37,606 bases of DNA, from NCBI GenBank assembly GCA_019428825.1, contig JAHYJU010000003.1, forward strand, positions 1 to 37,606, in the 5' to 3' direction. Below, one piece after another: positions 5,351-37,606 of the stretch; the first letter of the stretch is position 1; the number at the start of each line of letters is the position of its first letter. Source of the DNA: Patescibacteria group bacterium (GTDB lineage Bacteria; Patescibacteriota; WWE3; UBA101185; UBA10185). A program made the translations under genes and the position numbers. The notes under the pieces were generated by a model. That model worked only from the letters and a program-made list of their open reading frames with translations, searched no databases and was not told the DNA's origin.

Positions 5351-6388
5351 ATGGACAATCCCAATGATATTGAGAATATAAAAAAATATTTGTCCGAAAA
5401 ACTTGAAACTGTTTCAAGTGTTGATGATATTTCAAAAATTAGAAACGAGTTCTTAGGGAAAAAAGGGTTTATCGGTAAAATGCTTTCCGATATGAGAAAT
5501 ATTTCTTCAGACCAAAGAAAGGATTACGGTGCAAAATTAAACTTATTGAAAATAGAGGTTGAAAACATGATAGATGAATACTCCGGGAAATTTGAAAACG
5601 ACAAAGATTCAATCTATACCGAACTTTATAAATCGTTGCCCGGGCGTAAGCCTGAAATTGGTCATATAAATATAATTACCCAAGCAATTTCTGAAATAAC
5701 CAAAGTATTTGCCCCACTGGGTTTTAACAGAGTTAGATACCCTGAAATTGATAGAGAATATTATGTTTTTGAAGCTCTTAATATGCCTGAAACTCACCCC
5801 GCAAGGGATGAGTGGGAAACTTTCTTTGTAGATAGTCCTAATGACGAAAAACTTGGAAGACTTGTTATTACGCCCCATACCTCAAGTGGTCAGGTTAGAG
5901 AAATGCTAAAAGGAGAATTACCTATAAGAATGTTAAATATCTCAAGATGCGGAAGAAGACAAATAGATGTTAGCCACGTTCCCAGTTTTTATCAATTTGA
6001 GGGTTTGGTTATTGATGAAAATATAAGCACAACCCATCTTATTGGAGTTTTGGACTATTTTGCAAAAAATTTCTTTGGGGCTGATAGAGAAACCAGGTTG
6101 CGACCTTATCACTTTAGATTCACAGAGCCCAGCTTTGAGGTTGATATTAACTGTGGAATATGTCATGGCAAGGGTTGTAAACTTTGTAAAGGTGGTTGGC
6201 TTGAACTTGGAGGTGCCGGAATGGTTCATCCTAATGTTTTAAAAGCCGGTGGTGTTGACACTGAAAAGTATTCGGGTTTTGCATTTGGTTGGGGAGTTGA
6301 AAGAACTTATATGATGAAATCAGGAACAAAAATTGATGATATAAGAAACCTTTTTTCAAATGATTTAAGATTTTTGGAGCAATTTTAA
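5351..6388 (+). CDS. pheS: Phenylalanine--tRNA ligase alpha subunit
   Basis: HPARD, TPHTS, FYQFEG, FRFTEPS, GAGMVHP and GFAFGWGVER; contains a CxxCxGxGCxxC insert. Confidence 0.97.
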   Translation: MDNPNDIENIKKYLSEKLETVSSVDDISKIRNEFLGKKGFIGKMLSDMRNISSDQRKDYGAKLNLLKIEVENMIDEYSGKFENDKDSIYTELYKSLPGRKPEIGHINIITQAISEITKVFAPLGFNRVRYPEIDREYYVFEALNMPETHPARDEWETFFVDSPNDEKLGRLVITPHTSSGQVREMLKGELPIRMLNISRCGRRQIDVSHVPSFYQFEGLVIDENISTTHLIGVLDYFAKNFFGADRETRLRPYHFRFTEPSFEVDINCGICHGKGCKLCKGGWLELGGAGMVHPNVLKAGGVDTEKYSGFAFGWGVERTYMMKSGTKIDDIRNLFSNDLRFLEQF

Positions 6389-17801: not shown

Positions 17802-20441
17802 ATGAAAAAATACGTATACTTTTTTGGAAATAATAATACTGAAGGTTCCTCGGACATGAAATTTATATTGGGGGGTAAGGGTGCGAATCTTGCTGAAATG
17901 AGCAAGGTAGGAATTCCGGTTCCGTCTGGATTTACAATATCCACTGAAGTTTGCAGAGATTACAATCTAAATGGGGGTCAAATTCCCGAGGGTTTGGAGA
18001 AGCAGGTTGATGAATATTTAAAACAATTAGAAGAAGCTACAGGAAAAAAATTTGGAGATGATAGTAATCCTCTCCTTGTTTCTGTAAGGTCAGGGGCTGC
18101 TGCATCAATGCCGGGTATGATGGATACTATTTTGAATTTAGGTTTAAACGATTCTGTTGTGTCAAGAATTTCTGAAAATACAGGTAACCCAAGATTTGCT
18201 TGGGATTCGTACAGAAGATTTATTCAAATGTACGGGAACGTTGTTGAGAATATTGAGCACGAAAAATTTGAACATATTATTGATGAAGTTAAGTTATCAA
18301 AAGGTAAAAAAGAAGATACCGAAATGTCTTCCGATGATTGGCAAGAGGTTTCAAACGGATATAAAAAATTATTTAAGATAGAAAAAGGATATGATTTTCC
18401 CGATGACGCTAAAAAACAACTTTGGGGATCAATTTTGGCTGTTATAGGGTCTTGGAATAACACCAGGGCTGTTACTTACAGACAACTTAATAGGATTGAT
18501 GAGACAAAAGTATTTGGTACTGCTGTTAATGTTCAATCAATGGTTTTTGGAAATCTAGGTCCTGAATCAGGTACAGGTGTTGCCTTTACGAGAAATCCTT
18601 CCACAGGAGAAAATCTTCCTTATGGTGAGTATTTAATGAATGCTCAGGGTGAGGACGTAGTTGCAGGTATAAGGACTCCTAAACATCTTGATTCTTTAAA
18701 GCAGGAAAACGAGGAAATATATAATCAACTTATTGAGATTTTCTCTATTCTGGAAAAACATTACAAGGACATGCAGGATGTTGAGTTTACTATTGAGAAT
18801 GGAAAATTGTTTATCTTACAAACTAGAAGTGGAAAAAGAACCGCCCCGGCTTCAGTTAAAATTGCCGTAGATATGGTAAGTGAAAATTTAATTACCGAAA
18901 AAGAAGCGTTGCTAAGAATAGAGCCTGATAAATTAGATCAGCTTTTGCACCCAACACTTGATGAAAATGCTAAGTCTCAGTTTAAAGTTATAGCAAAAGG
19001 GCTACCCGCTTCCCCCGGGGCCGGTGTGGGTGAGGTTGTTTTTGATGCAGATACCGCAGTTGATTGGAAAAAGCAAGGAAAAAAGGTAATTTTAGTGCGT
19101 TTAGAGACATCTCCCGAGGACATTGCAGGTATGAACGCTGCAGTTGGTGTTTTAACTGCAAGAGGAGGTATGACTTCTCATGCCGCGGTTGTTGCCAGAG
19201 GTATGGGAAAGTGTTGTGTATCGGGTTGTGAGTCAATATCTGTGTCGGAAGCTAAAAAAGAGATGCATGTAGGTGATTTAGTAGTTTCTGAAGGTGATTT
19301 GATAACATTAGACGGTTCTACAGGTGAAGTTTTTTTAGGAGAAGTTCCTACAACCGATCCCGAACTTTCGGGCTATTTTGCAACTATAATGGAATGGTCG
19401 GACAAATATAAAAAGCTCGGAGTAAGAACTAATGCAGATACTCCAAAAGATTCCCAAGTTGCAAGGGATTTTGGAGCCCAGGGAATTGGTCTTTGCCGAA
19501 CCGAGCATATGTTTTTTGAAACTGATAGGATTTTTGCTGTCCGTCAGATGATTGTTTCTGATACAGTTGATCAAAGAAAAGCTGCTTTGGAAAAGATTTT
19601 TCCTATTCAGAAAAATGATTTCAAAGAGTTATTTCAAATTATGAGTGGCTTACCTGTTAAAATACGTTTACTAGATCCCCCACTTCATGAGTTTTTACCC
19701 AAGACAAAGGAAGATATAAAGGAAATTGCAGATGAAATGGAAATTTCGGAAGAAAAATTAACCGATAAAATTGAATTTTTGCACGAATTTAACCCTATGA
19801 TGGGTCATCGGGGGTGCCGTTTAGGAGTTACTTATCCTGAGATATTTGAAATGCAGGTTAGGGCAATATCAGAAGCTGCTTGTGAGTTTATTAAAGAGGG
19901 AAATTCTATTACTCCTGAAATTATGATTCCTCTTATAGGGGAGTTTAATGAGTTAAAGTGGTTAAAGGACCGTTTAGTTCCGGTAGTTGAGGAAACTATA
20001 AAAAAGTTCGGGGTTGAGATGAAGTATGAGATTGGAACTATGATAGAAATTCCCAGAGCAGCTTTAACTGCTGATAAAATAGCTCAGGAGGCTGATTTCT
20101 TTTCTTTTGGTACAAATGATTTAACACAGATGACTTATGGGTTTTCGAGAGATGATTCGGGTAAGTTTTTGAATGATTACATTGAAAAGAAAATTGTTGC
20201 TGAGGATCCTTTTAAGAGCTTGGATATTGATGGAGTTGGAAAATTGATGAAAATGGCTGTGGATTTGGGTCGTTCTACCAAAGAACACCTGCACATCGGG
20301 ATCTGTGGTGAGCAGGGTGGGGATCCTGCAACGATAAAATTTTGCCACGAAATTGGGTTGGATTATGTATCTTGCTCTCCTTATCGTGTTCCTATTGCAA
20401 GATTGTCCGCAGCTCAGGCAGCTATTGAGAGTGAGGAGTAA
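17802..20441 (+). CDS. ppdK: Pyruvate, phosphate dikinase
   Basis: LGGKGANL, LLVSVRSGA..SMPGMMDT, TSHAAVVAR (phospho-His), GLCRTEHMF and FSFGTNDLTQ. Confidence 0.98.
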   Translation: MKKYVYFFGNNNTEGSSDMKFILGGKGANLAEMSKVGIPVPSGFTISTEVCRDYNLNGGQIPEGLEKQVDEYLKQLEEATGKKFGDDSNPLLVSVRSGAAASMPGMMDTILNLGLNDSVVSRISENTGNPRFAWDSYRRFIQMYGNVVENIEHEKFEHIIDEVKLSKGKKEDTEMSSDDWQEVSNGYKKLFKIEKGYDFPDDAKKQLWGSILAVIGSWNNTRAVTYRQLNRIDETKVFGTAVNVQSMVFGNLGPESGTGVAFTRNPSTGENLPYGEYLMNAQGEDVVAGIRTPKHLDSLKQENEEIYNQLIEIFSILEKHYKDMQDVEFTIENGKLFILQTRSGKRTAPASVKIAVDMVSENLITEKEALLRIEPDKLDQLLHPTLDENAKSQFKVIAKGLPASPGAGVGEVVFDADTAVDWKKQGKKVILVRLETSPEDIAGMNAAVGVLTARGGMTSHAAVVARGMGKCCVSGCESISVSEAKKEMHVGDLVVSEGDLITLDGSTGEVFLGEVPTTDPELSGYFATIMEWSDKYKKLGVRTNADTPKDSQVARDFGAQGIGLCRTEHMFFETDRIFAVRQMIVSDTVDQRKAALEKIFPIQKNDFKELFQIMSGLPVKIRLLDPPLHEFLPKTKEDIKEIADEMEISEEKLTDKIEFLHEFNPMMGHRGCRLGVTYPEIFEMQVRAISEAACEFIKEGNSITPEIMIPLIGEFNELKWLKDRLVPVVEETIKKFGVEMKYEIGTMIEIPRAALTADKIAQEADFFSFGTNDLTQMTYGFSRDDSGKFLNDYIEKKIVAEDPFKSLDIDGVGKLMKMAVDLGRSTKEHLHIGICGEQGGDPATIKFCHEIGLDYVSCSPYRVPIARLSAAQAAIESEE

Positions 20442-20511: not shown

Positions 20512-20588
20512 TGGTGGGCGGTAAAGGAATCGAACCTATGACCTCCACAATGTCAATGTGGCGCTCTAACCGACTGAGCTAACCGCCC
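20512..20588 (-). tRNA. tRNA-Val(GAC)
   Basis: Cloverleaf GGGCGGTTAGCTCAG...CCACA-TT-GAC-AT-TGTGG...GGTTCGATTCC...ACCGCCCACCA with encoded CCA. Confidence 0.96.
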
Positions 20589-20807
20589 CTGCTTATATCT
20601 TATTCTATTTTCAATCTTTCTCACTCGGACAAGCCTCGTTTTATACCCCACTTAATTTCTTGTGTGTATGGCTAGCTCCGGATTTTCAATTAGGAGCTAA
20701 CCGCCCCTGTTTATATCTTATTCTATTTTCAATCTTTCTCACTCGGACAAGCCTCGTTTTATACTCCACTTAATTTCTTGTGTGTATGGCTAGCTCCGGA
20801 TTTTCAA
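20576..20807. repeat. Tandem duplication of 114 bp (period 118) including the first 13 nt of tRNA-Val
   Basis: 20576-20689 vs 20694-20807 are identical except for 2 substitutions. Confidence 0.92.
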
Positions 20808-30218: not shown

Positions 30219-30710
30219 TTAGAATCCTCTGTAGTCCCTACTTTTCTCATATGGTTTTAACCTATCACTATGTTTTTCGTTATAGAAATTTTTCATAGGG
30301 CCTCTTCTTGACCATATTTCATTCAAGCCTAATACATTAATGATTTGTGCGGATAAAAAGATTGCAGTTAACAGAGTTATGATTATTAAGATAAAGTTCT
30401 TTTTATATGAAAAATCGTATTTTTTTAGTAACCATATTCCCACTAAGAAAAGCCCAAGAGCTACAATAGGTATCCAGATTGGGAATGATTGTAGCATCAT
30501 GTATATTCGTCCTGTTCCCGGTCCCCGTTTTCTGATTAAAAATAATGTTAAGTTGGTAAAAAAGATAGCTCCTATAATAGAACCTGTTAAACCGATGTAA
30601 GAAAGTATAGAACCCAATACAAAGTACCACTTTGGTTTCATTTTGACTTCGCCGGATAATATTTTATCCATTATTTTATTTTCTATGTTTACTTTATTTT
30701 TTCTTTGCAT
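30219..30710 (-). CDS. Membrane protein with 3 TM segments, candidate anti-sigma factor
   Basis: Overlaps the end of the ECF sigma gene; soluble N-terminus followed by three hydrophobic segments. Confidence 0.7.
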   Translation of the reverse strand: MQRKNKVNIENKIMDKILSGEVKMKPKWYFVLGSILSYIGLTGSIIGAIFFTNLTLFLIRKRGPGTGRIYMMLQSFPIWIPIVALGLFLVGIWLLKKYDFSYKKNFILIIITLLTAIFLSAQIINVLGLNEIWSRRGPMKNFYNEKHSDRLKPYEKSRDYRGF

Positions 30711-31243
30711 ATTTTTTTTAAAATAATTTTTGCCCTTTTTATTCTAATTGAAACTGTACCTACAGGAATTCTTAAAATGTCACCTATTTCTTTGTAGGAT
30801 TTATCTTCTAAATAATAAAGAGATAGAGGTTCTCTGTAAATTAAATCCATATTTTTCAAACATTCGCGAGTATTTGATATAAGCTCTTTCTTTATGTATT
30901 CATCTTCAATATCTTCCCCACTTTCAAAATCAATATTCGGATCTATATTTACAGTCTTTTTATCCTTACTAATTAAATTAATAGATTCGTTATGTACTAT
31001 CCTATAAATCCAGTTAGAAAAGTTCTTTTTTAGGTCAAAGCTGTTCAGATTTATGTAAGATTTTATTAAAGATTGTTGTACTGCATCACTTGCCTTGTCG
31101 TAATCACCAATTAAATATTCCGCATATCTAATTAACTTATCTTGGTATCTTCTAACGATATATGCATATATTTCTTTATTATTATTTCTAACAATTTCGA
31201 CAATTTCTTCGTCTGTTTTTAATTTAATTTCACTATCTTTCAT
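30689..31243 (-). CDS. ECF RNA polymerase sigma factor
   Basis: DAVQQ, FSNWIYRIVHN and SYKEIGDILRIPVGTVSIRIKRAK (regions 2 and 4). Confidence 0.93.
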   Translation of the reverse strand: MKDSEIKLKTDEEIVEIVRNNNKEIYAYIVRRYQDKLIRYAEYLIGDYDKASDAVQQSLIKSYINLNSFDLKKNFSNWIYRIVHNESINLISKDKKTVNIDPNIDFESGEDIEDEYIKKELISNTRECLKNMDLIYREPLSLYYLEDKSYKEIGDILRIPVGTVSIRIKRAKIILKKICKEKIK

Positions 31244-31250
31244 AAAGCAC

Positions 31251-31310
31251 CCATAATTTTACACTATGCCTAATCTGAATATTTGAATAGACATAGTGTA
31301 ATTTTTATGG
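31251..31310. terminator. Long intergenic hairpin (partial terminator or stabiliser)
   Basis: CCATAA..TTACACTATG / CATAGTGTAA..TTATGG inverted repeat. Confidence 0.5.
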
Positions 31311-31312
31311 AA

Positions 31313-31693
31313 TTATTTGGAATTTCTGCCAAAACCTCCGCCCATTCTTCTACCCGAACCGGTACCGTTACGAAGACCTAAACCTAGCTCCTCTCTTATT
31401 TGTTGTGCTTCCTCTGTTTTACCTTCTAAAGAGAGTCTGTGTGCTTCGCCAAATTTGGAAAAATTTTCCTCATTTATTACCTCTGTGACTCTTCCCTTAC
31501 CGTTCATAAGCTCTTTCCATGATTGATAATCATTGTTATCAAAAGCAGCTACCATTTTCTCGTGTCTTTCTTCTGTGCAGTCAGGGCCTTTAACTGATGC
31601 GTCTCCTCTGTATGCAAGAACTTTTGAAGGAACAATAAAAATAGCTCCTAATAAAAGACCTGCGGAACCCAGTACTATTAATTTTTTATTCAT
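31313..31693 (-). CDS. Secreted small helical protein with a Gly-rich tail
   Basis: Signal peptide (...KVLA), SD AAGGAGGTGA, first gene of the ECF operon. Confidence 0.8.
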   Translation of the reverse strand: MNKKLIVLGSAGLLLGAIFIVPSKVLAYRGDASVKGPDCTEERHEKMVAAFDNNDYQSWKELMNGKGRVTEVINEENFSKFGEAHRLSLEGKTEEAQQIREELGLGLRNGTGSGRRMGGGFGRNSK

Positions 31694-31733
31694 TTAAAAT
31701 CACCTCCTTAATTATTAACACTTACATATCTAA

Positions 31734-31760
31734 TACAATCTGAGGTTGGGTTTTGTTTCA
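31734..31760 (-). promoter_or_regulatory. Putative ECF-type promoter
   Basis: TGAAAC-17-TGTA, resembling SigW/SigX-class promoters. Confidence 0.5.
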
Positions 31761-31863
31761 TATGAAAATTTTTCTAGGGTAATTAAAGGTTGTTAGTTAC
31801 TTTATTTGCAGGTAGGTGTGGTTTATTTGTGAGAGTTCGCAAAAGGTTGGCAAGTTGTGTGGA

Positions 31864-32250
31864 CTATTTACGAACCGAGTATTTTTTGAATACTGATGTA
31901 ATTTTTTTCAGATCCGCTTTTTTGTCAGCAATATCTAATCCTAGTTTTATCAATTTCTTTTGAGATATAGTAACTTTGTATCCGTTTAGTTCCAAAAAAG
32001 TCAGTGCTGCGTGTAATCCAGTTCTTTTGTTCCCATCTACAAAAGGATGGTTTCTAGTAATAGAATAAGTTAGAACAGCAGCTTTTTCATGAACAGATTT
32101 GTACATGTCTTTACCGGAAATGTTTGTAATGGGTCTATTGGCAGCTGATTCAAGGAGCGGGAGGTTTAGTACTCCTTTTGATCCTCCAAAACGTTGTATT
32201 TGATAATCGTGAAGAGCAAGAATTTCTTCAACACTTAGGTATCTCATCAT
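31864..32250 (-). CDS. doc: Doc (death-on-curing, Fic family) toxin
   Basis: NHPFVDGNKRTG Fic/Doc motif and LESAANRP. Confidence 0.92.
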   Translation of the reverse strand: MMRYLSVEEILALHDYQIQRFGGSKGVLNLPLLESAANRPITNISGKDMYKSVHEKAAVLTYSITRNHPFVDGNKRTGLHAALTFLELNGYKVTISQKKLIKLGLDIADKKADLKKITSVFKKYSVRK

Positions 32251-32480
32251 TTTGCCAATTCTCTAAATGCCTCTTGATACCTATCTGCTAATGAATCGGC
32301 AATTTTAAGAAACTCGGGTGAAATGTTACCTGAATTTTCTTTTTCTATTAAAAGTTTATCTTGTACTTGTTCTACAAATACCTCGGTTCCAACACCGATA
32401 TTTAATTTTTCCAGTATCTGACTTGGGATTATAATTCCTACCGAATTACCTATTTTTTTTAGTTTTTGAGTATATTTCAT
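32247..32480 (-). CDS. AbrB/MazE-type antitoxin
   Basis: KLKKIGNSVGIIIP; C-terminal YQEAFRELAK; overlaps doc by 4 nt. Confidence 0.9.
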   Translation of the reverse strand: MKYTQKLKKIGNSVGIIIPSQILEKLNIGVGTEVFVEQVQDKLLIEKENSGNISPEFLKIADSLADRYQEAFRELAK

Positions 32481-32481
32481 A

Positions 32482-32500
32482 GTTATAACATGTTATAACA
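32482..32500. promoter_or_regulatory. Tandem palindromic operator of the TA operon
   Basis: GTTATAAC and TGTTATAACA palindromes directly before the antitoxin ATG. Confidence 0.6.
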
Positions 32501-32658
32501 TTATGTAATTTTGTCAAGAATTTGATGGGGGCACTTGTGATTATGTGCAATCCGATAAGGCTCTTCAATTTACCCTTCAAAAGATAAGTTAAATTTTTAT
32601 TACAATGTCTAAAACATTACCACGTTATTTCAGAATTTCTATTTTTGTAAAATTTCTA

Positions 32659-32799
32659 TCAAAGTCCAAATAATCTAACGATCAAGATTATTACGGCAAT
32701 AACGATTAGTATGTGAATCAACTCACCTCCAATATGAAAAGAGAATCCTCCTAGCCATGCGATTACTAATATTATTATTATAATATCTAACAAACCCAT
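32659..32799 (-). CDS. lmo0937/DUF5670-like small membrane protein, 46 aa (MGLLDIIIIILVIAWLGGFSFHIGGELIHILIVIAVIILIVRLFGL)
   Basis: Translated by hand; SD AGGAGGTGA; W-LG...GG-LIH-L pattern. Confidence 0.8.
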   Translation of the reverse strand: MGLLDIIIIILVIAWLGGFSFHIGGELIHILIVIAVIILIVRLFGL

Positions 32800-32867
32800 A
32801 CTTAATCACCTCCTAAGTTCCTACAACTATTTAAATTAAAACCAATACTCTCTCAATCTATCTATTT

Positions 32868-33281
32868 TTATTGCTGTTCCTTAGAAAATATTCTTACTAG
32901 CTTAACAAGTCCCCAGGCTAAGAGTGCGTATACTATCATTGCTACAAGTGTTGCCGGCTCAAGAACTGAGGTTGTTTCTATACCTTGGGACACGGAACTT
33001 TGGAATATTCCTTCAAAAGGAATTATGAACAACCCTGTTAATCCGTAAATAAAGCTCACAAAAGCACTCGATATACTAGCTCCCATCAACTTTAGAACAA
33101 GACGAAAAGCCAATAGAATTTCTACAGCCCCAAGTATGTAGTAAACCAAATATTCACTCGTTTGTGATTTAGTTGCCGATGTCTGGACTTGAGTCGTCAT
33201 AATCGGATCGTCACTATTATTTGAATTAGTTAACACACTATCATCTTCAGTAACTATCGTTTCTTTTAATATTTCTGCCAT
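32868..33281 (-). CDS. YggT-like membrane protein
   Basis: EILLAFRLVLKLMGA...FIYGLT...PFEGIF...ATLVAMIVY pattern. Confidence 0.75.
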   Translation of the reverse strand: MAEILKETIVTEDDSVLTNSNNSDDPIMTTQVQTSATKSQTSEYLVYYILGAVEILLAFRLVLKLMGASISSAFVSFIYGLTGLFIIPFEGIFQSSVSQGIETTSVLEPATLVAMIVYALLAWGLVKLVRIFSKEQQ

Positions 33282-33325
33282 ATTTTCTCACCTACTTTCA
33301 ATTTTTAATTTATTACAAGTTATTT

Positions 33326-33580
33326 TTACTTACGTACAAGATGTACTAAGAAAATAACCACAATTGCTCCAATTATTGCTACAATCAGGCTATAAAGATT
33401 AAATCCGGTAACACCCGATTTTCCTAACAGATCCATTAAGAAACCTCCTACCACTGCTCCAACTATTCCCAAAATAATATCCGTGAGGGTTCCTTGTTCG
33501 GAATTGGTTTTCATTATTATTGATGCAATCCATCCGACCAATGCTCCAAAAACTATCCAAAGTAATATACCCATATTCAT
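33326..33580 (-). CDS. GlsB/YeaQ/YmgE family stress membrane protein
   Basis: WIVFGALVGWIASIIM...IILGIVGAVVGG...SLIVAIIGA; the start may be ATG 33574. Confidence 0.88.
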   Translation of the reverse strand: MNMGILLWIVFGALVGWIASIIMKTNSEQGTLTDIILGIVGAVVGGFLMDLLGKSGVTGFNLYSLIVAIIGAIVVIFLVHLVRK

Positions 33581-33611
33581 TCACCTACTTTCACGTTCTA
33601 AATTTTTATTT

Positions 33612-33683
33612 CTAAATCGAAATAATTACTGCCGTAATAGTTCCTAACAAAGCCCCAATTGTAGCCCAAAGTACTATATACAT
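33612..33683 (-). CDS. 23-aa single-TM peptide or truncated GlsB-like copy (MYIVLWATIGALLGTITAVIISI)
   Basis: SD GAGGTGA; resembles the first helix of the adjacent GlsB-family gene. Confidence 0.45.
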   Translation of the reverse strand: MYIVLWATIGALLGTITAVIISI

Positions 33684-33773
33684 ATTTATTCACCTCATTA
33701 CAAAAATTAATTAACTCTTGATCAGCAGTTTTAGTTTCTAACAAACTCTAACTCAGCCTTTATTCTGAAAACT

Positions 33774-34013
33774 TTATTCTGATGGAATATCCTCAGGCTG
33801 GGTATCAGGAATAACTACTTCCGGAGATTCCACATTAATTTCAGGAGTAGGCACGTTGATCTCAACCGGCTTCATATTTTTTATTGCCGGAATAGCAAAG
33901 TACAAAATAACTCCGAGAAATATAACTATAATTACAACACCTACTAGAAAGCCACTCCCTCCTCTATCCCCGTCTTCCTTTACAGGTGCTGGGTTGTTTA
34001 CCACTGTTGTCAT
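33774..34013 (-). CDS. Small single-TM protein with a Pro/acidic tail
   Basis: Extended SD TGAAAGTGGGTGA; one hydrophobic segment. Confidence 0.75.
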   Translation of the reverse strand: MTTVVNNPAPVKEDGDRGGSGFLVGVVIIVIFLGVILYFAIPAIKNMKPVEINVPTPEINVESPEVVIPDTQPEDIPSE

Positions 34014-34110
34014 ATATTATTCACCCACTTTCAGGTTCCTAAAATAATTACGTATTAAATTTTATAAATTGGTTAAAATAAACTAATCTAAAGGGTTAAG
34101 GAGTTATTTT

Positions 34111-34290
34111 TCAGCCTAACTTTTTAATTATCTTTTTTATGATAGTTTTCTCAGGTAGATATTTTACTAATGCTTGTTCGACAAGAGATGTCAGAGTTAT
34201 TTCCTCAACAACCGACTGAGCTTTTGCTTGTTTAGCTATAGAGGGATCAATGAATAAGGTAATTCGTTGTTTTTTAATTTGATTTGTCAT
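34111..34290 (-). CDS. Ribbon-helix-helix-like DNA-binding protein, 59 aa (MTNQIKKQRITLFIDPSIAKQAKAQSVVEEITLTSLVEQALVKYLPEKTIIKKIIKKLG)
   Basis: Translated by hand; beta strand RITLFID, then helix, then TLTSLVEQAL helix. Confidence 0.7.
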   Translation of the reverse strand: MTNQIKKQRITLFIDPSIAKQAKAQSVVEEITLTSLVEQALVKYLPEKTIIKKIIKKLG

Positions 34291-34313
34291 ACTTCATATA
34301 CTACACTTATTGT

Positions 34314-34337
34314 AGTGGTTGTCGATAGACAACCACT
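34314..34337. promoter_or_regulatory. Perfect 10-bp inverted repeat, candidate operator
   Basis: AGTGGTTGTC-GATA-GACAACCACT overlapping a TCGACA-16-TAGTAT promoter candidate of the RHH gene. Confidence 0.6.
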
Positions 34338-34408
34338 TTAACTATATGAAATATCGTTGAGTATATCTGAATGATTTTGAAAAAGAATGGAATGGATGTA
34401 TAGAAAAT

Positions 34409-34439
34409 GTGGTGGGCCATTTGTGAAGAAGTGAGAACC
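34409..34439 (+). repeat. 31-bp att-like direct repeat, copy 1
   Basis: GTGGTGGGCCATTTGTGAAGAAGTGAGAACC, 28/31 identical to 37375-37405. Confidence 0.85.
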
Positions 34440-34492
34440 ATTTTTGAATAAATTTTAAATTATTTTGTTCTTAAATATGATATTATGTAAAA

Positions 34493-35785
34493 ATGATTAT
34501 CCTCAATGATTTCAACGTAAAAAGGGAGAGTATAAAGCTTCCAAATGGTTGCAATTTAACCCTTTTCAAACGTTCTAATACGCCAGTATATATGATGTTT
34601 TCACTAATTATTGGATCGAGATTCGACCCGGTAGGTAAGGAAGGATTGGCACATTTTTTTGAGCACATGCTTGTCGCCGGTACAAAAAATTTTTCAACAA
34701 AAGATCTTTTAGCAGGATATTTAGAGGATTTAGGGGGTTCAGTGGGAGCTTCTACAGATGTAGATATTTTAAAAATAAGACTTTCTCTTGGAGATCCAAA
34801 AGATATTGAGTCCGGGGTGTATCTTTTATCGGAAATACTTTTTAACTCGCTATTCGATGACAACACTATTGAGAATGAAAGAAAAGCAATATTAAGGGAA
34901 TTAGAGTCTAGTAATGCAAACCCCGCAAAAACAATATATGAGGTAAAAAGAAGATTGTTTTATCAAGATACCGAGGTGGGGAGATCTACACTTGGGACAG
35001 TTGAAAGCATAAATAATATTAATAAATCCGATCTACTAGACTATTTTAATAATAAAATTACAGCTTCATTATCCGATATAACTATCTCTGGGGATCTAGA
35101 TATTAATGAAATAAAGCCACTTTTTGAAAAGTATCTTTCGTTAGAAGAAGGAATCAAGCCTTTGTTTGAAGATAAATTACCAATAATTAGAAATAAACTT
35201 ACTGATTTCGAATATTTTGATAATGAGAGTATGGAGACGTTGTTGGGTTTTAGAACAGAAAATATTTTACACGAAGATACTAAGGCTCTAGATGTTCTTA
35301 CGAGTATTTTAACAGGAGGTAGAACCGGGTTGTTAATAAAAAAATTAAGGTATGAGAAGGGGTTGGTTTATTCTGTTAGATCTCGCAATGAATCTTCGTT
35401 TAATTTCGGAAGTACCTACATAAGTTGCCCGATATCTAAAGATAAAATACAAGAGGTGTTGGATACTATTTGTTTGGAGTTAAGAAGGATCTCAGAAAAG
35501 GGCCCTACCTTGGAAGAATTGCAGCTAGTTAAAAATAGGATTTTAAAATCTATTAATATTCGTATGCAAACCTCAGAGGCTTGGGTCTGGTTTCATTATT
35601 ATGAAAATCTATTTTTCCCTGAAGAAATTTGGACCATTGAGGATTATTTAAGTTCTATTGAAAAAACCTCAGCCGAGGATATTAAAAGGGTGGCAGAAAA
35701 ATATTTTACAAATGATAACTGGTACCTAGCTTTTGCAGGGCCTGTAGATGAATCCTTTATTGATAATATAAAAGTATCTTTGTAA
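34493..35785 (+). CDS. M16 family zinc peptidase, second paralog
   Basis: FDPVGKEGLAHFFEH and LRYEKGLVY. Confidence 0.92.
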   Translation: MIILNDFNVKRESIKLPNGCNLTLFKRSNTPVYMMFSLIIGSRFDPVGKEGLAHFFEHMLVAGTKNFSTKDLLAGYLEDLGGSVGASTDVDILKIRLSLGDPKDIESGVYLLSEILFNSLFDDNTIENERKAILRELESSNANPAKTIYEVKRRLFYQDTEVGRSTLGTVESINNINKSDLLDYFNNKITASLSDITISGDLDINEIKPLFEKYLSLEEGIKPLFEDKLPIIRNKLTDFEYFDNESMETLLGFRTENILHEDTKALDVLTSILTGGRTGLLIKKLRYEKGLVYSVRSRNESSFNFGSTYISCPISKDKIQEVLDTICLELRRISEKGPTLEELQLVKNRILKSINIRMQTSEAWVWFHYYENLFFPEEIWTIEDYLSSIEKTSAEDIKRVAEKYFTNDNWYLAFAGPVDESFIDNIKVSL

Positions 35786-35815
35786 GCTTAGATATTTGAT
35801 TTAAATTGAAACGTC

Positions 35816-37297
35816 TTAATAATTTATAGAATATTCCAATTTGTTGAGACGATCCTCCATATTTAAGTACCCCATATCGATAGTATCTCTTCCCTTTGCA
35901 AACTCTATGTATTTTTTATTACCCATAGAATAGTCTTCGTGCATATGTATTCTCTCTTCTTTATTTCCGGGATTAATGGTGTACCATTTTTTCTCATCGT
36001 ATATATAAACATTTACAAAATAATGTCCAGAAACCGGAATTTTTTCATCGTTTTTCCAATTTGGGTTATCTTTTAACCAGTCTTCTTCTATTGTATCTAC
36101 TATTAAGGAGGGAACACCTTTTGCAAGTAATAAAGCTCTCGTAATATAGGAAATTTGAGTACATCCATTGATGTTTCTAACCCTTGTGTGGCCAGATATT
36201 AGATTATTTTCATCTAGAAGTTCGTCTGCACTTGTATCCCATTTATCTATTTTTGGAATTGGCCTATTTTCTCTCGCTTTATCTAGAATTTCTATAGAGG
36301 GCATCATAGATCTAATGTATCTACATACTTCTTCAACTAATTCTAACCCTGATAGTTTGTTTTTAGGGTCAATTTCTTTTGATATTTTTAATACGTTCTC
36401 TGTAATTTTTGTTCTTGGTCCTTCATCCTTAGCCCTACTAATTTGTTTGATGTAGTCTATAGAATACTGAATAATATCTTCTTTATCGTAGTAAATGTCC
36501 GGTTTTATTTTTGTTTCTTCAATCGGTCTTGTTTCTCCGGCTAAAACAAATCTCCACGTTGGAATTTTAACGATATAGGTTTCTCCGTCAATAACAACTT
36601 CGCTTTCTATGGGATTAGCACTACCTCCTTTTGTTTTTGTTCCAATCAAAACGCAGTTCGTTCCTGCTTTCATAGTTGCAATAAATCTTTCGGCTGAGCT
36701 AAATGTATTAGTTGATGTTAGGATAACAATAGGCTTGTAATAAGGATTTTCACTATTTGACTCTGTGGGTAAAGATACCCGTTGCAAACCTGTGTCCTCC
36801 GGTCCAAGAAAGATGTTTGTTCCCATATCATTGCTTTCAGGATTAATAAAATATTTCTGAGCAAAATTTCTTGCGGGCGCTTCTTGCCCACCCCCATTAT
36901 CACGAAGATCTATAATTATTCCGTCTGTAGAGTCCTTGTAAGGTAAAAATTGATCTTCTAGATCTGTTAACTTAATTCCTGATAGTGTAGGAATTTTGAT
37001 ATATAAGATATTATCGATAACTTCACTACTTGGCGCTCTTTCAGGATCTAAAGATCGTTTTTGTGTTTCATAATTTGAACTCTTTTTCCTTATACTTGCA
37101 TGGGGGTTGTTTAACAGCTCTATTAGTTCATTGATTTCTTCTAGTGCCCCCTCTTTTTCTATTTTAGTAGCCTTTTCCATGTATTTTTTATATTCCTCGT
37201 CATTTAGAAAGGGGTAGGTGGTTGCTATCTGCGTAAGTATTTGTGAGGGGTAGTCTTTTTCTTCTCTTTCAATTTCATATATGCGTTCAACACTCAT
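35816..37297 (-). CDS. S41 family peptidase fused to a transglutaminase-like domain
   Basis: IIDLRDNGGG, TFSSAERF, IGTKTKG and IKPD; then GCTQ...RALLLAKGVPS...GHYFVNVY...WYTINP. Confidence 0.75.
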   Translation of the reverse strand: MSVERIYEIEREEKDYPSQILTQIATTYPFLNDEEYKKYMEKATKIEKEGALEEINELIELLNNPHASIRKKSSNYETQKRSLDPERAPSSEVIDNILYIKIPTLSGIKLTDLEDQFLPYKDSTDGIIIDLRDNGGGQEAPARNFAQKYFINPESNDMGTNIFLGPEDTGLQRVSLPTESNSENPYYKPIVILTSTNTFSSAERFIATMKAGTNCVLIGTKTKGGSANPIESEVVIDGETYIVKIPTWRFVLAGETRPIEETKIKPDIYYDKEDIIQYSIDYIKQISRAKDEGPRTKITENVLKISKEIDPKNKLSGLELVEEVCRYIRSMMPSIEILDKARENRPIPKIDKWDTSADELLDENNLISGHTRVRNINGCTQISYITRALLLAKGVPSLIVDTIEEDWLKDNPNWKNDEKIPVSGHYFVNVYIYDEKKWYTINPGNKEERIHMHEDYSMGNKKYIEFAKGRDTIDMGYLNMEDRLNKLEYSINY

Positions 37298-37374
37298 ACT
37301 ATAATTTTAGCATAAAAAATTGTTTACCCCTCCGTTTATACTTATGAAATAGATTGATATAACAACAAAAAAAC

Positions 37375-37405
37375 GTGGTGGGCCATTTGTGAGGATGTGC
37401 GAACC
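37375..37405 (+). repeat. 31-bp att-like direct repeat, copy 2
   Basis: GTGGTGGGCCATTTGTGAGGATGTGCGAACC. Confidence 0.85.
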
Positions 37406-37426
37406 GCATAATGATATAATTGCTAC

Positions 37427-37606
37427 ATGAACGATGAATCTTTTACTAAGAAGATAATTAGTGATGAAAAACCACAATCAATCGAAAAATCTGTGTCAGA
37501 TGAAATAAAAGCCCATGCATATAATATAGTTGAGAGGTTTGCAGAAGATAATAAAACCCCAGTTATTACAGATAAGTTACCAACTGAAATTGCCCCGTCG
37601 GGAGAT
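37427..37606 (+). CDS. 5' part of a hypothetical protein, truncated by the window end (MNDESFTKKIISDEKPQ...)
   Basis: ATG 6 nt after TGATATAAT; frame stays open for 60 codons to the edge. Confidence 0.6.
   Translation, partial: MNDESFTKKIISDEKPQSIEKSVSDEIKAHAYNIVERFAEDNKTPVITDKLPTEIAPSGD

Follow-up and report, generated by a model that had tools for sequence, protein, structure and literature searches.

What do the short direct repeats in the right-hand part of contig JAHYJU010000003.1 mark? The contig comes from a Patescibacteria group bacterium of the WWE3 lineage, and the repeats stand between small groups of accessory genes. The window analysed here is the whole contig (C63; 37,606 nt) of a genome (G000) of 842 kb, which is assembled in 71 contigs and has a G+C content of 35%. 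An initial annotation, made from the letters alone, had read 31-bp repeats in this window as scars of repeated site-specific integration at a tRNA gene. That reading is supported by a further copy beyond the window edge, by a tRNA gene to the right of the repeats in relatives and by breaks of homology at the core of the repeat. Specifically, the motif is quite probably a recombination junction and not a regulatory site. It appears to result from the accretion of cassettes at the 3' end of tRNA-Leu, and a large serine recombinase (LSR) is the enzyme that we infer for it.

Motif copies and the tRNA-Leu gene

Two good copies lie in the window, at 34409-34439 and 37375-37405. As first annotated, they are intergenic, lie on the same strand and are identical at 28 of 31 positions. 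In a control for these two copies, none of 100 dinucleotide shuffles yielded even one match. The conserved unit is 29-30 nt long (34410-34438 and 37376-37404). Copy 1 (34410-34438, + strand) consists of an 8-nt core, TGGTGGGC, at 34410-34417, followed by a 21-nt arm that is not tRNA sequence, and forms the left end of a cassette with an M16 and an S41 gene. It has five mismatches to the family consensus and is found with E 1.9e-6 by nhmmer and with E 4.2e-8 by a sequence-only covariance model. Copy 2 (37376-37404, + strand; nhmmer E 2.1e-9) has the same arrangement of core and arm and forms the left end of an alginate-lyase cassette. Together with 37354-37375, it makes up an attP-like junction of ~51 bp. 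The segment 37354-37375 (+ strand) is the right end of the preceding cassette, is of the ATTGATATAACAACAAAAAAACG type, and is read here as a putative P half-site.

Further copies had been predicted beyond position 37606, and copy 3 is found there. The reverse strand of contig C42 overlaps the last 64 nt of the window exactly, so that C42 continues C63. The copy at C42:475-503 (- strand; E 3.1e-10) has joined coordinates of ~38641-38669. It lies ~50 nt past the alginate-lyase stop and touches the stop of a converging open reading frame (ORF) whose family is not known. At a limit of ≤8 mismatches per 31 nt, and with a hidden Markov model (HMM) built from relatives, the genome contains three copies in total, which form one co-oriented array across C63 and C42. 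Because there are only three, the genome-wide scatter over promoters or factor sites, which the initial annotation had named as the finding that would count against it, does not apply.

Two more copies had been proposed on the left. The decayed copy at 32523-32553 (+ strand) lies between the doc/antitoxin cassette and the small-membrane-protein cassette, at edit distance 7 from the 29-nt motif. Besides this site and the true copies, one other site in the genome, an unrelated one, scores ≤7; shuffled genomes have 3.0 sites at ≤8. The HMM built from relatives gives the decayed copy no score, and it is its position that speaks for it: genome G019 has an intact motif 35 nt after the same doc/antitoxin cassette, and G041 has a comparably decayed copy at the corresponding place. 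The copy at 31815-31845 (+ strand) lies between the doc gene and the conserved gene block 8-9-10 (30219-31693). By sequence it does not exceed chance (edit distance 9, with 60 such sites genome-wide vs 33 in shuffles). It might be the oldest and most distal junction. Edit distance and mismatches of the copies grow with distance from the tRNA side, which agrees with the leftward decay described initially.

The motif is widespread within the family of the source organism. It is present in 20 of 86 family genomes at ≤3 mismatches and in 27 of 86, from 15 of 51 genera, with the sequence-only covariance model (E≤0.01). An exact-pattern scan of all species genomes gave matches only in this family, with record titles that include candidate division WWE3. 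We assembled 22 family loci, with 46 copies at ≤7 mismatches, and 16 metagenome contigs. Within each locus the copies are co-oriented (22/22 family loci and 16/16 metagenome contigs), and the 34 distances between neighbouring copies run from 502 to 8876 nt (median 1562 nt). The information content over 62 distinct junctions forms a sharp 30-nt block with near-zero flanks. The family consensus is TGGTGGGCCATCTGTCAGGATGTGCGAAC, the most variable part of the motif is its middle (positions 11-16), and a terminator hairpin often precedes it.

A variant motif, TGGTGGGCCATCGTTGACCAGGTTGCGAAC, is found in G076 (L040/L041, contig G076:C1), which suggests sub-families of the site. Its two copies (377423 and 379670, reverse strand) lie 2.2 kb apart, 7.5 and 9.7 kb downstream of tRNA-Leu(taa).

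Every copy begins with TGGTGGGC, 8 nt that correspond, as reverse complement, to the tRNA-Leu 3' end, GCCCACCA. In 12 of the 22 family loci and 5 of the 16 metagenome contigs, the last copy is followed on its right, after 0.7-4.4 kb, by a tRNA-Leu gene on the opposite strand. The anticodon at the 12 family loci is TAG in six and TAA in six, and all 12 tRNAs read TGGTGGGCGAG on the motif strand. G027 carries arrays at both of its tRNA-Leu genes. In the source genome, tRNA-Leu(tag) is found on the 2.7-kb contig C5, with the same two neighbour genes as in relatives. From the tRNA gene 45 nt lead downstream to the contig end, and the motif strand reads ...GCTATAACAACAAAAAAATG and then the core. 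This flank, which abuts the tRNA 3' end, is of the type found at cassette ends, the ATTGATATAACAACAAAAAAACG type of 37354-37375.

Thus the tRNA 3'-end origin claimed initially stands, and the identity of the tRNA changes to tRNA-Leu(TAG/TAA), not tRNA-Ile or tRNA-Val. The core does match the end of the tRNA-Val(gac) in the window, as noted at the outset, since that gene also ends in GCCCACCA. The end attributed to tRNA-Ile GAU was misassigned: tRNA-Ile(gat) of the source genome ends in CACCCACCA, and the sole tRNA ending in GGCCCACCA is tRNA-Val(cac) on C44. The forecast of a tRNA or a recombinase past the right edge held for the tRNA, at the 12 family loci, and not for the enzyme, as no recombinase lies next to the array in the source genome.

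The motif was also considered as a tRNA fragment. By eye it does not fold in a T-arm plus acceptor register, and it comes no closer to tRNA 3' ends than edit distance 8-9, as is the case for many tRNAs in the genome. A search of Rfam 15 gave no match at E≤1 across 31000-37606.

Cassette turnover at the core and the candidate recombinase

Cassettes are gained, lost and reordered exactly at the core. The initial annotation had anticipated gain or loss of modules at the motif in relatives, and two pairs of genomes show it. Two genomes of one genus, G045 and G036, match at 98.7% identity as far as the 8-nt core at the tRNA end, after which G036 has 9.85 kb extra. This extra DNA opens with the motif arm straight after TGGTGGGC; it includes two cassettes headed by motifs, has a ~210-nt segment for the second time, and stops at the next core, which precedes the tRNA. 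In the second pair, G035 and G044 share a 4.4-kb three-gene cassette that is 89.7% identical from its motif to the next core. Past this core, G035 goes on with the tRNA body, whereas G044 has another motif with a different cassette; homology stops inside the core. The cassette that follows in G044 is found elsewhere within the G035 array.

The ~210-nt segment lies next to tRNA-Leu(tag), once in G045 (L062) and twice in G036 (L058). It is headed by a 21-nt partial tRNA-Leu 3' end, TGGTGAGCGAGAGAGGACTCG, and ends in the terminator hairpin of the tRNA; it may be the scar of another element type. The same locus of G036 (contig G036:C40) has a large cassette of 8.9 kb between motifs, which measures 7.6 kb in metagenome contig L096 and holds a tRNA-Tyr gene pair. 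The source genome has a tRNA-Tyr pair on C38, besides one tRNA-Tyr on C24.

Metagenome contigs show the same modular behaviour. Six sequencing runs contain ≤8% of the sampled words, in every case as contigs, and the window parts that they leave uncovered are uninformative. Contigs from four other metagenome runs (four studies) match the window only from 37354/37368 to 37403/37404, and their flanks are unlike both sides. The stretch common to these foreign contigs is thus flank plus motif, ~51 bp. Two contigs of run X1 put the motif 27 nt ahead of sequence like 35822-35876. The run contigs belong to other organisms, at ≥85% likeness, and show modularity, not mobility in the source population.

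As annotated, the window encodes no tyrosine or serine recombinase (PF00589, PF00239); matches in the genome are found only on C48, C58 and C26. We checked six genomes, the source genome and five relatives (G035, G036, G043, G056 and G027). Each has exactly two Xer-like tyrosine recombinases, which in the five relatives are far from the arrays or on other contigs.

LSRs occur in 53 of 86 family genomes (E≤1e-10). In 23 of 30 family LSR loci (L103-L132), the LSR frame extends into a convergent tRNA gene and stops within its 3' end; the tRNAs entered in this way are Pro, Gln, Asn, His, Trp, Ser, Gly and Leu. Among the remaining loci one is unplaceable, and three of the other six end at a contig end. 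Database homologues of these LSRs likewise end in peptides encoding tRNA ends. In the source genome the LSR gene (C26:13687-15177) reads into a tRNA-His gene on the same contig and breaks off where the contig ends.

Truncated LSR genes abut the core in G076, in metagenome contig L102 and in P0001. In L102, a C-terminal LSR frame of 331 codons ends at the motif. In G076, an LSR fragment that is 90% identical to it at the amino acid level ends at tRNA-Leu(taa). Their DNA sequences can be aligned closely as far as TGGTGGGC; beyond it, L102 continues with the motif arm and G076 with the tRNA body. Searches for an intact version returned, among family genomes, the truncated G076 copy as the best match (90%) and 40% as the next best. 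In a set of 5.8 billion proteins they returned one 99% match, which is also truncated, and others at 32-42%, which run into other tRNAs. Viral contigs held no relative of the L102 fragment. The enzyme is probably an LSR, with a best candidate seen only as truncated copies elsewhere. Upstream of the LSR fragment, at 1709-2852 of L102 (oriented), two ORFs of 93 and 302 aa are inserted between it and the upstream genes; the pair may be a two-ORF insertion sequence.

The geometry of the site offers a second line of evidence. For serine integrases, Rutherford et al. (2013, PMC3783163) describe a minimal attB ~10 bp shorter than attP, and a zinc-ribbon-domain motif that is 5 bp nearer the centre in attB half-sites. 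Here, CGAAC is located at positions 25-29 of the motif and at positions 20-24 of the tRNA-Leu end, where it belongs to the T-loop. Judged by sequence, this +5 shift appears to match the attP/attB geometry of LSRs. The same shift is seen at a second tRNA. In G005:C7 (L138), an intact LSR frame of 563 aa lies beside tRNA-His (19775-19851), and the repeat architecture is that of the tRNA-Leu arrays. Two co-oriented copies of TGGGGTGGC+TTCYTAACAAAGTTTAGAAC are located upstream, at 5421 and 7275 (14.4 and 12.5 kb from tRNA-His). They have AGAAC at positions 25-29, compared with CGAAC at 20-24 in tRNA-His, and on their left they have flanks of the GTTGATRTRACAA type that the Leu arrays also show. 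The tRNA-His-type motif was not found in the source genome.

The cassette-end flank TTGWTATAACAACAAA (≤4 mismatches) is present at 15 of 34 internal junctions and at 3 of 27 leftmost ones. This bias fits internal junctions of the form P-core-P' and leftmost junctions of the form B-core-P'. The symmetry of flank and arm would place the centre of the site at GT, motif positions 3-4.

In the model that we favour, TGGTGGGC would be the common core where the crossover took place, and the next 21 nt, CATYTGTSAGGATGTGCGAAC, would be the half-site from the element side. Each motif marks where a small cassette begins on the left; the cassettes, with a median length of 1.6 kb and mostly one or two genes, extend right to the next core, and some apparently carry their own promoter. 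Cassettes would be added successively at the 3' end of tRNA-Leu, on the opposite strand and past the right window edge. Newcomers would displace older cassettes from the tRNA, so the leftmost copies would be the oldest and most decayed. An LSR would act in trans, with motif plus left flank as an attP-like site of ~51 bp and the tRNA end as attB. The T-loop sequence GTTCG of the tRNA would serve as outer (zinc-ribbon-domain) recognition motif and would lie 5 bp farther out in the cassette site. Because the arrays lack a recombinase, the cassettes would be either cis-mobilizable passengers or fossils.

A more far-reaching proposal is tentative, and we hold it to be rather doubtful. It states that WWE3 bacteria run an LSR cassette system that works like an integron but is made of other components, with tRNA-Leu as acceptor, attP-like sites of ~51 bp, exchange across genera, a recombinase that is rarely resident, and a clade-wide combination of GTTCG outer motif and acceptor-stem specificity. 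If this is true, that combination would explain why members of the clade target many different tRNAs.

Alternative explanations

Several observations weigh against accretion by an LSR. Ten of the 22 family loci have no tRNA to the right; in eight of these the contig ends within 1.8 kb, and G069 and G056 have no tRNA in the 4.8 kb up to the contig end. In the source genome, the link from C42 to C5 is made by synteny, not by assembly. No array examined, in the window genome and the five relatives, contains a recombinase, and the presence of LSRs does not track the motif (15 of 20 motif-positive genomes vs 38 of 66 others, E≤1e-10). No intact LSR of the tRNA-Leu type was found: the frame in G076 has 280 aa, the one in L102 is interrupted by ORFs and P0001 has 321 aa, and none of these three copies gives an N-terminal catalytic match. 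The shifted 5-mer is part of the universal T-loop, and the shift was noticed after the fact. Core repeats occur upstream at only one of six other LSR-tRNA loci, the other five having no repeat of ≥8 nt within 20 kb, and the proposed P-side flank is present at only about half of the internal junctions. Finally, LSRs normally recombine attP with attB only, and repeated insertion beside an occupied tRNA needs relaxed site choice. Such relaxed choice is reported for the recombinases of the staphylococcal cassette chromosome (SCC).

The alternative that survives best overlaps with our own model and differs from it only on present activity. It holds that the copies are inert fossils of past integration, with an arm conserved by recent common descent and not by present function, and we regard it as possible, though not likely. 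It draws on the truncation of all three tRNA-Leu-type LSR copies, on the existence of decayed motif copies, and on the exact motif pattern, which has no match in viral contigs. However, the order and content of cassettes vary at the core between species of one genus. Contigs also break at the motif, as population heterogeneity would cause (G042:C57 begins there, and G043:C27 and C40 end nearby). Moreover, cassette proteins common to different genera are 74-84% identical vs 40-65% for flanking core genes; the only comparison within the same pair of genomes in that set is G036 vs G076 (74% vs 60%).

It is improbable that the same junctions were made by a tyrosine recombinase, either the resident Xer-like pair, as in dif-like exploitation, or a non-resident integrase. 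The pair is at hand in each of the six genomes checked, and tRNA 3' ends are classic targets of tyrosine integrases (Islander). The motif can be written as 11-6-11 (GGTGGGCCATC / TGTCAG / GATGTGCGAAC), in which the arms are symmetric at 7 of 11 positions and the middle varies most. Nevertheless, homology between partners breaks at TGGTGGGC and not in the 6-nt middle, the 8-nt core has no flanking inverted binding sites, and the recombinase genes seen abutting the core are LSR fragments only. A peak of cumulative GC skew does lie ~45-60 kb from the motif in G076 and G007, but the signal is noisy over the 200 kb around the motif in both genomes, and the motif is off the peak. A single dif site also fits poorly with arrays at two tRNA-Leu genes in G027 and, for the variant motif, in G076. 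The dif/Xer idea was dropped on account of the two tRNA loci, the distance of the skew peak and the noisy profiles.

It is hardly credible that the motif is an operator or promoter-upstream element, bound for example by the ribbon-helix-helix-like protein at 34111-34290: each window copy stands between divergent genes, ahead of a -10-like box and a near-leaderless start, and the arm contains, by eye, two 8-nt direct half-repeats (TGTGAGGA TGTGCGAA), but copy 3 lies between converging gene ends and touches a stop codon, the distance from motif to -10 is unequal (7 nt vs 39 nt), the gene to the right of the motif in relatives points away in only ~15 of 40 cases (by eye), terminator hairpins often precede the motif, and the motif is restricted to tRNA-Leu loci and coincides with cassette borders.

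The -10-like boxes themselves, which the initial annotation had placed after both good copies, are seen at both. By eye, extended -10-like sequences (TGATATTAT at 34478-34486 and TGATATAAT at 37412-37420) stand 6 nt before the ATG codons at 34493 and 37427. A consensus promoter scan reports a promoter only at the first of these sites, with no overall excess (26 found, 24.6 expected).

Related systems and cassettes of the window

Judging from its sequence features, which comprise 3'-end repeats, an intact tRNA at the end and polymorphism at the repeats, the array appears to fit the class of tRNA-targeted island arrays. At ssrA of Dehalococcoides, McMurdie et al. (2011, PMC3146451) describe islands in tandem that lie downstream of a tRNA-like gene and have short direct repeats of its 3' end as their borders. 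A CcrB-like LSR integrase lies next to the attachment site, a conserved non-target motif lies beside the repeat, and islands without an integration module are proposed to be cis-mobilizable by accretion. The arrays studied here share with these the tandem stack, the 3'-end repeats, the adjacent conserved motif and the islands that lack a module. They differ in target: ssrA encodes transfer-messenger RNA and has a 20-bp repeat with insertion in the T-loop, whereas the target here is tRNA-Leu, with an 8-bp core at the extreme 3' end. In the same account, sixteen ssrA islands have a six-gene integration module, and none of our arrays does. Compared with the islands as described, our cassettes are also far smaller (median 1.6 kb), and the lineage is candidate division WWE3.

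Tycheposons of Prochlorococcus, as described in the preprint by Hackl et al. (bioRxiv 10.1101/2020.12.28.424599), resemble our arrays in tRNA integration, in small streamlined genomes, in newcomers that push older elements inward, and in partial tRNAs and degenerate remnants. Integrase-bearing elements are also much rarer there than islands. In contrast to our arrays, 910 of the 937 tycheposons rely on a tyrosine recombinase, and replication genes are present in most tycheposons. Our repeats, by comparison, have no more than 8 nt in common with the tRNA; the element arm does not derive from the tRNA in register, and we found no autonomous element.

Like integrons, the arrays are co-oriented stacks of small cassettes, mostly of one or two genes, at one fixed acceptor site and with one short recombination site per cassette. 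Unlike integrons, they have no IntI gene and no hairpin-forming attC; specifically, 61-nt stretches at all three copies show no attC-like folding on either strand (z -0.1 to -1.6). The cassette genes here also run in both directions, some apparently with their own promoters rather than Pc. The array is therefore not a member of the integrons, and the 'integron-like' label of the initial annotation holds as an analogy.

SCC elements target rlmH, a protein gene, need CcrA plus CcrB, or CcrC, and are tens of kb long. According to PMC3146451, SCC composite islands are similar to our arrays in that LSRs insert at the 3' end of one conserved gene, in tandem and with short direct repeats, and that elements without a recombinase are mobilized in trans. 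With the attP/attB pairs of serine integrases, as set out in PMC3783163, our sites share a short common core, a unit of ~51 bp vs a shorter host site, and an outer motif displaced by +5 bp on the element side. Compared with those pairs, the left half-site here is loosely conserved and no intact cognate enzyme is at hand, and the likeness is one of sequence.

Accretion at tRNA genes is an already known way of gaining genes, and here it is seen in a bacterial group with tiny genomes. The arrays are set apart by lineage, by very small cassettes, by an 8-nt core at the extreme tRNA 3' end and by the lack of a resident enzyme. The literature searched, supplements of the analogue papers aside, contained no account of such arrays for candidate phyla radiation or WWE3 bacteria, which is not proof of absence. 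Genomes of the candidate phyla radiation are smaller than 1 Mb, and their routes of gene gain are poorly known. The locus provides a fixed and precisely bounded entry point for additions and exchanges of peptidases, membrane proteins, a polysaccharide lyase and a toxin-antitoxin pair. The motif is a short tag for finding such islands in fragmented metagenome bins. The habit of LSRs of running into tRNA genes and the +5 shift of the T-loop motif together give a testable rule for the choice of tRNA target, and the T-loop rule may help to predict attachment sites of serine integrases from uncultured organisms.

The module contents given initially are largely recovered with Pfam. From left to right, a Fic/DOC toxin and a MazE-type antitoxin form the cassette at 31864-32480 (- strand). 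The same pair lies directly to the left of the intact motif in G019, with 72.7% nucleotide identity over 578 nt. The cassette at 32621-34354 (- strand) encodes four small membrane proteins and a 59-aa protein with a weak match to DUF6364. The whole block is conserved in G041 (77% over 1774 nt), and G069 has part of it, followed by a degenerate motif. The M16 and S41 cassette (34439-37375) consists of two convergent genes, M16 at 34493-35785 (+ strand) and S41 at 35816-37297 (- strand). The transglutaminase part that had been ascribed to the S41 gene is not seen (Pfam, E≤0.01). In G043, an S41-type gene stands alone between two motif copies. The alginate-lyase cassette starts at 37405 and occupies the rest of the window to 37606 (+ strand); its ORF, with its start at 37427, crosses into C42, where it lies on the reverse strand (PF05426, E 7e-58).

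Other repeats were seen in the same genome. A string of ~30 nt (TGGTGGACTATCTGGGAGGTTGTTGGGAAC type) occurs at least five times on one strand, at ~5260-7350 of C28 and ~560-590 of C38. It is probably a repeat within a coding region, unrelated to the motif. The window itself contains two blocks of a 12-nt, G+C-rich tandem unit (AGGGCTGAGCCT type), at 1681-1751 and 2432-2514; the blocks, 714 nt apart, are mutually complementary as well. Finally, a tandem duplication with units of 114 nt (20576-20689 and 20694-20807; 98% identical) reaches into the 5' end of tRNA-Val(gac), whose gene occupies 20512-20588.

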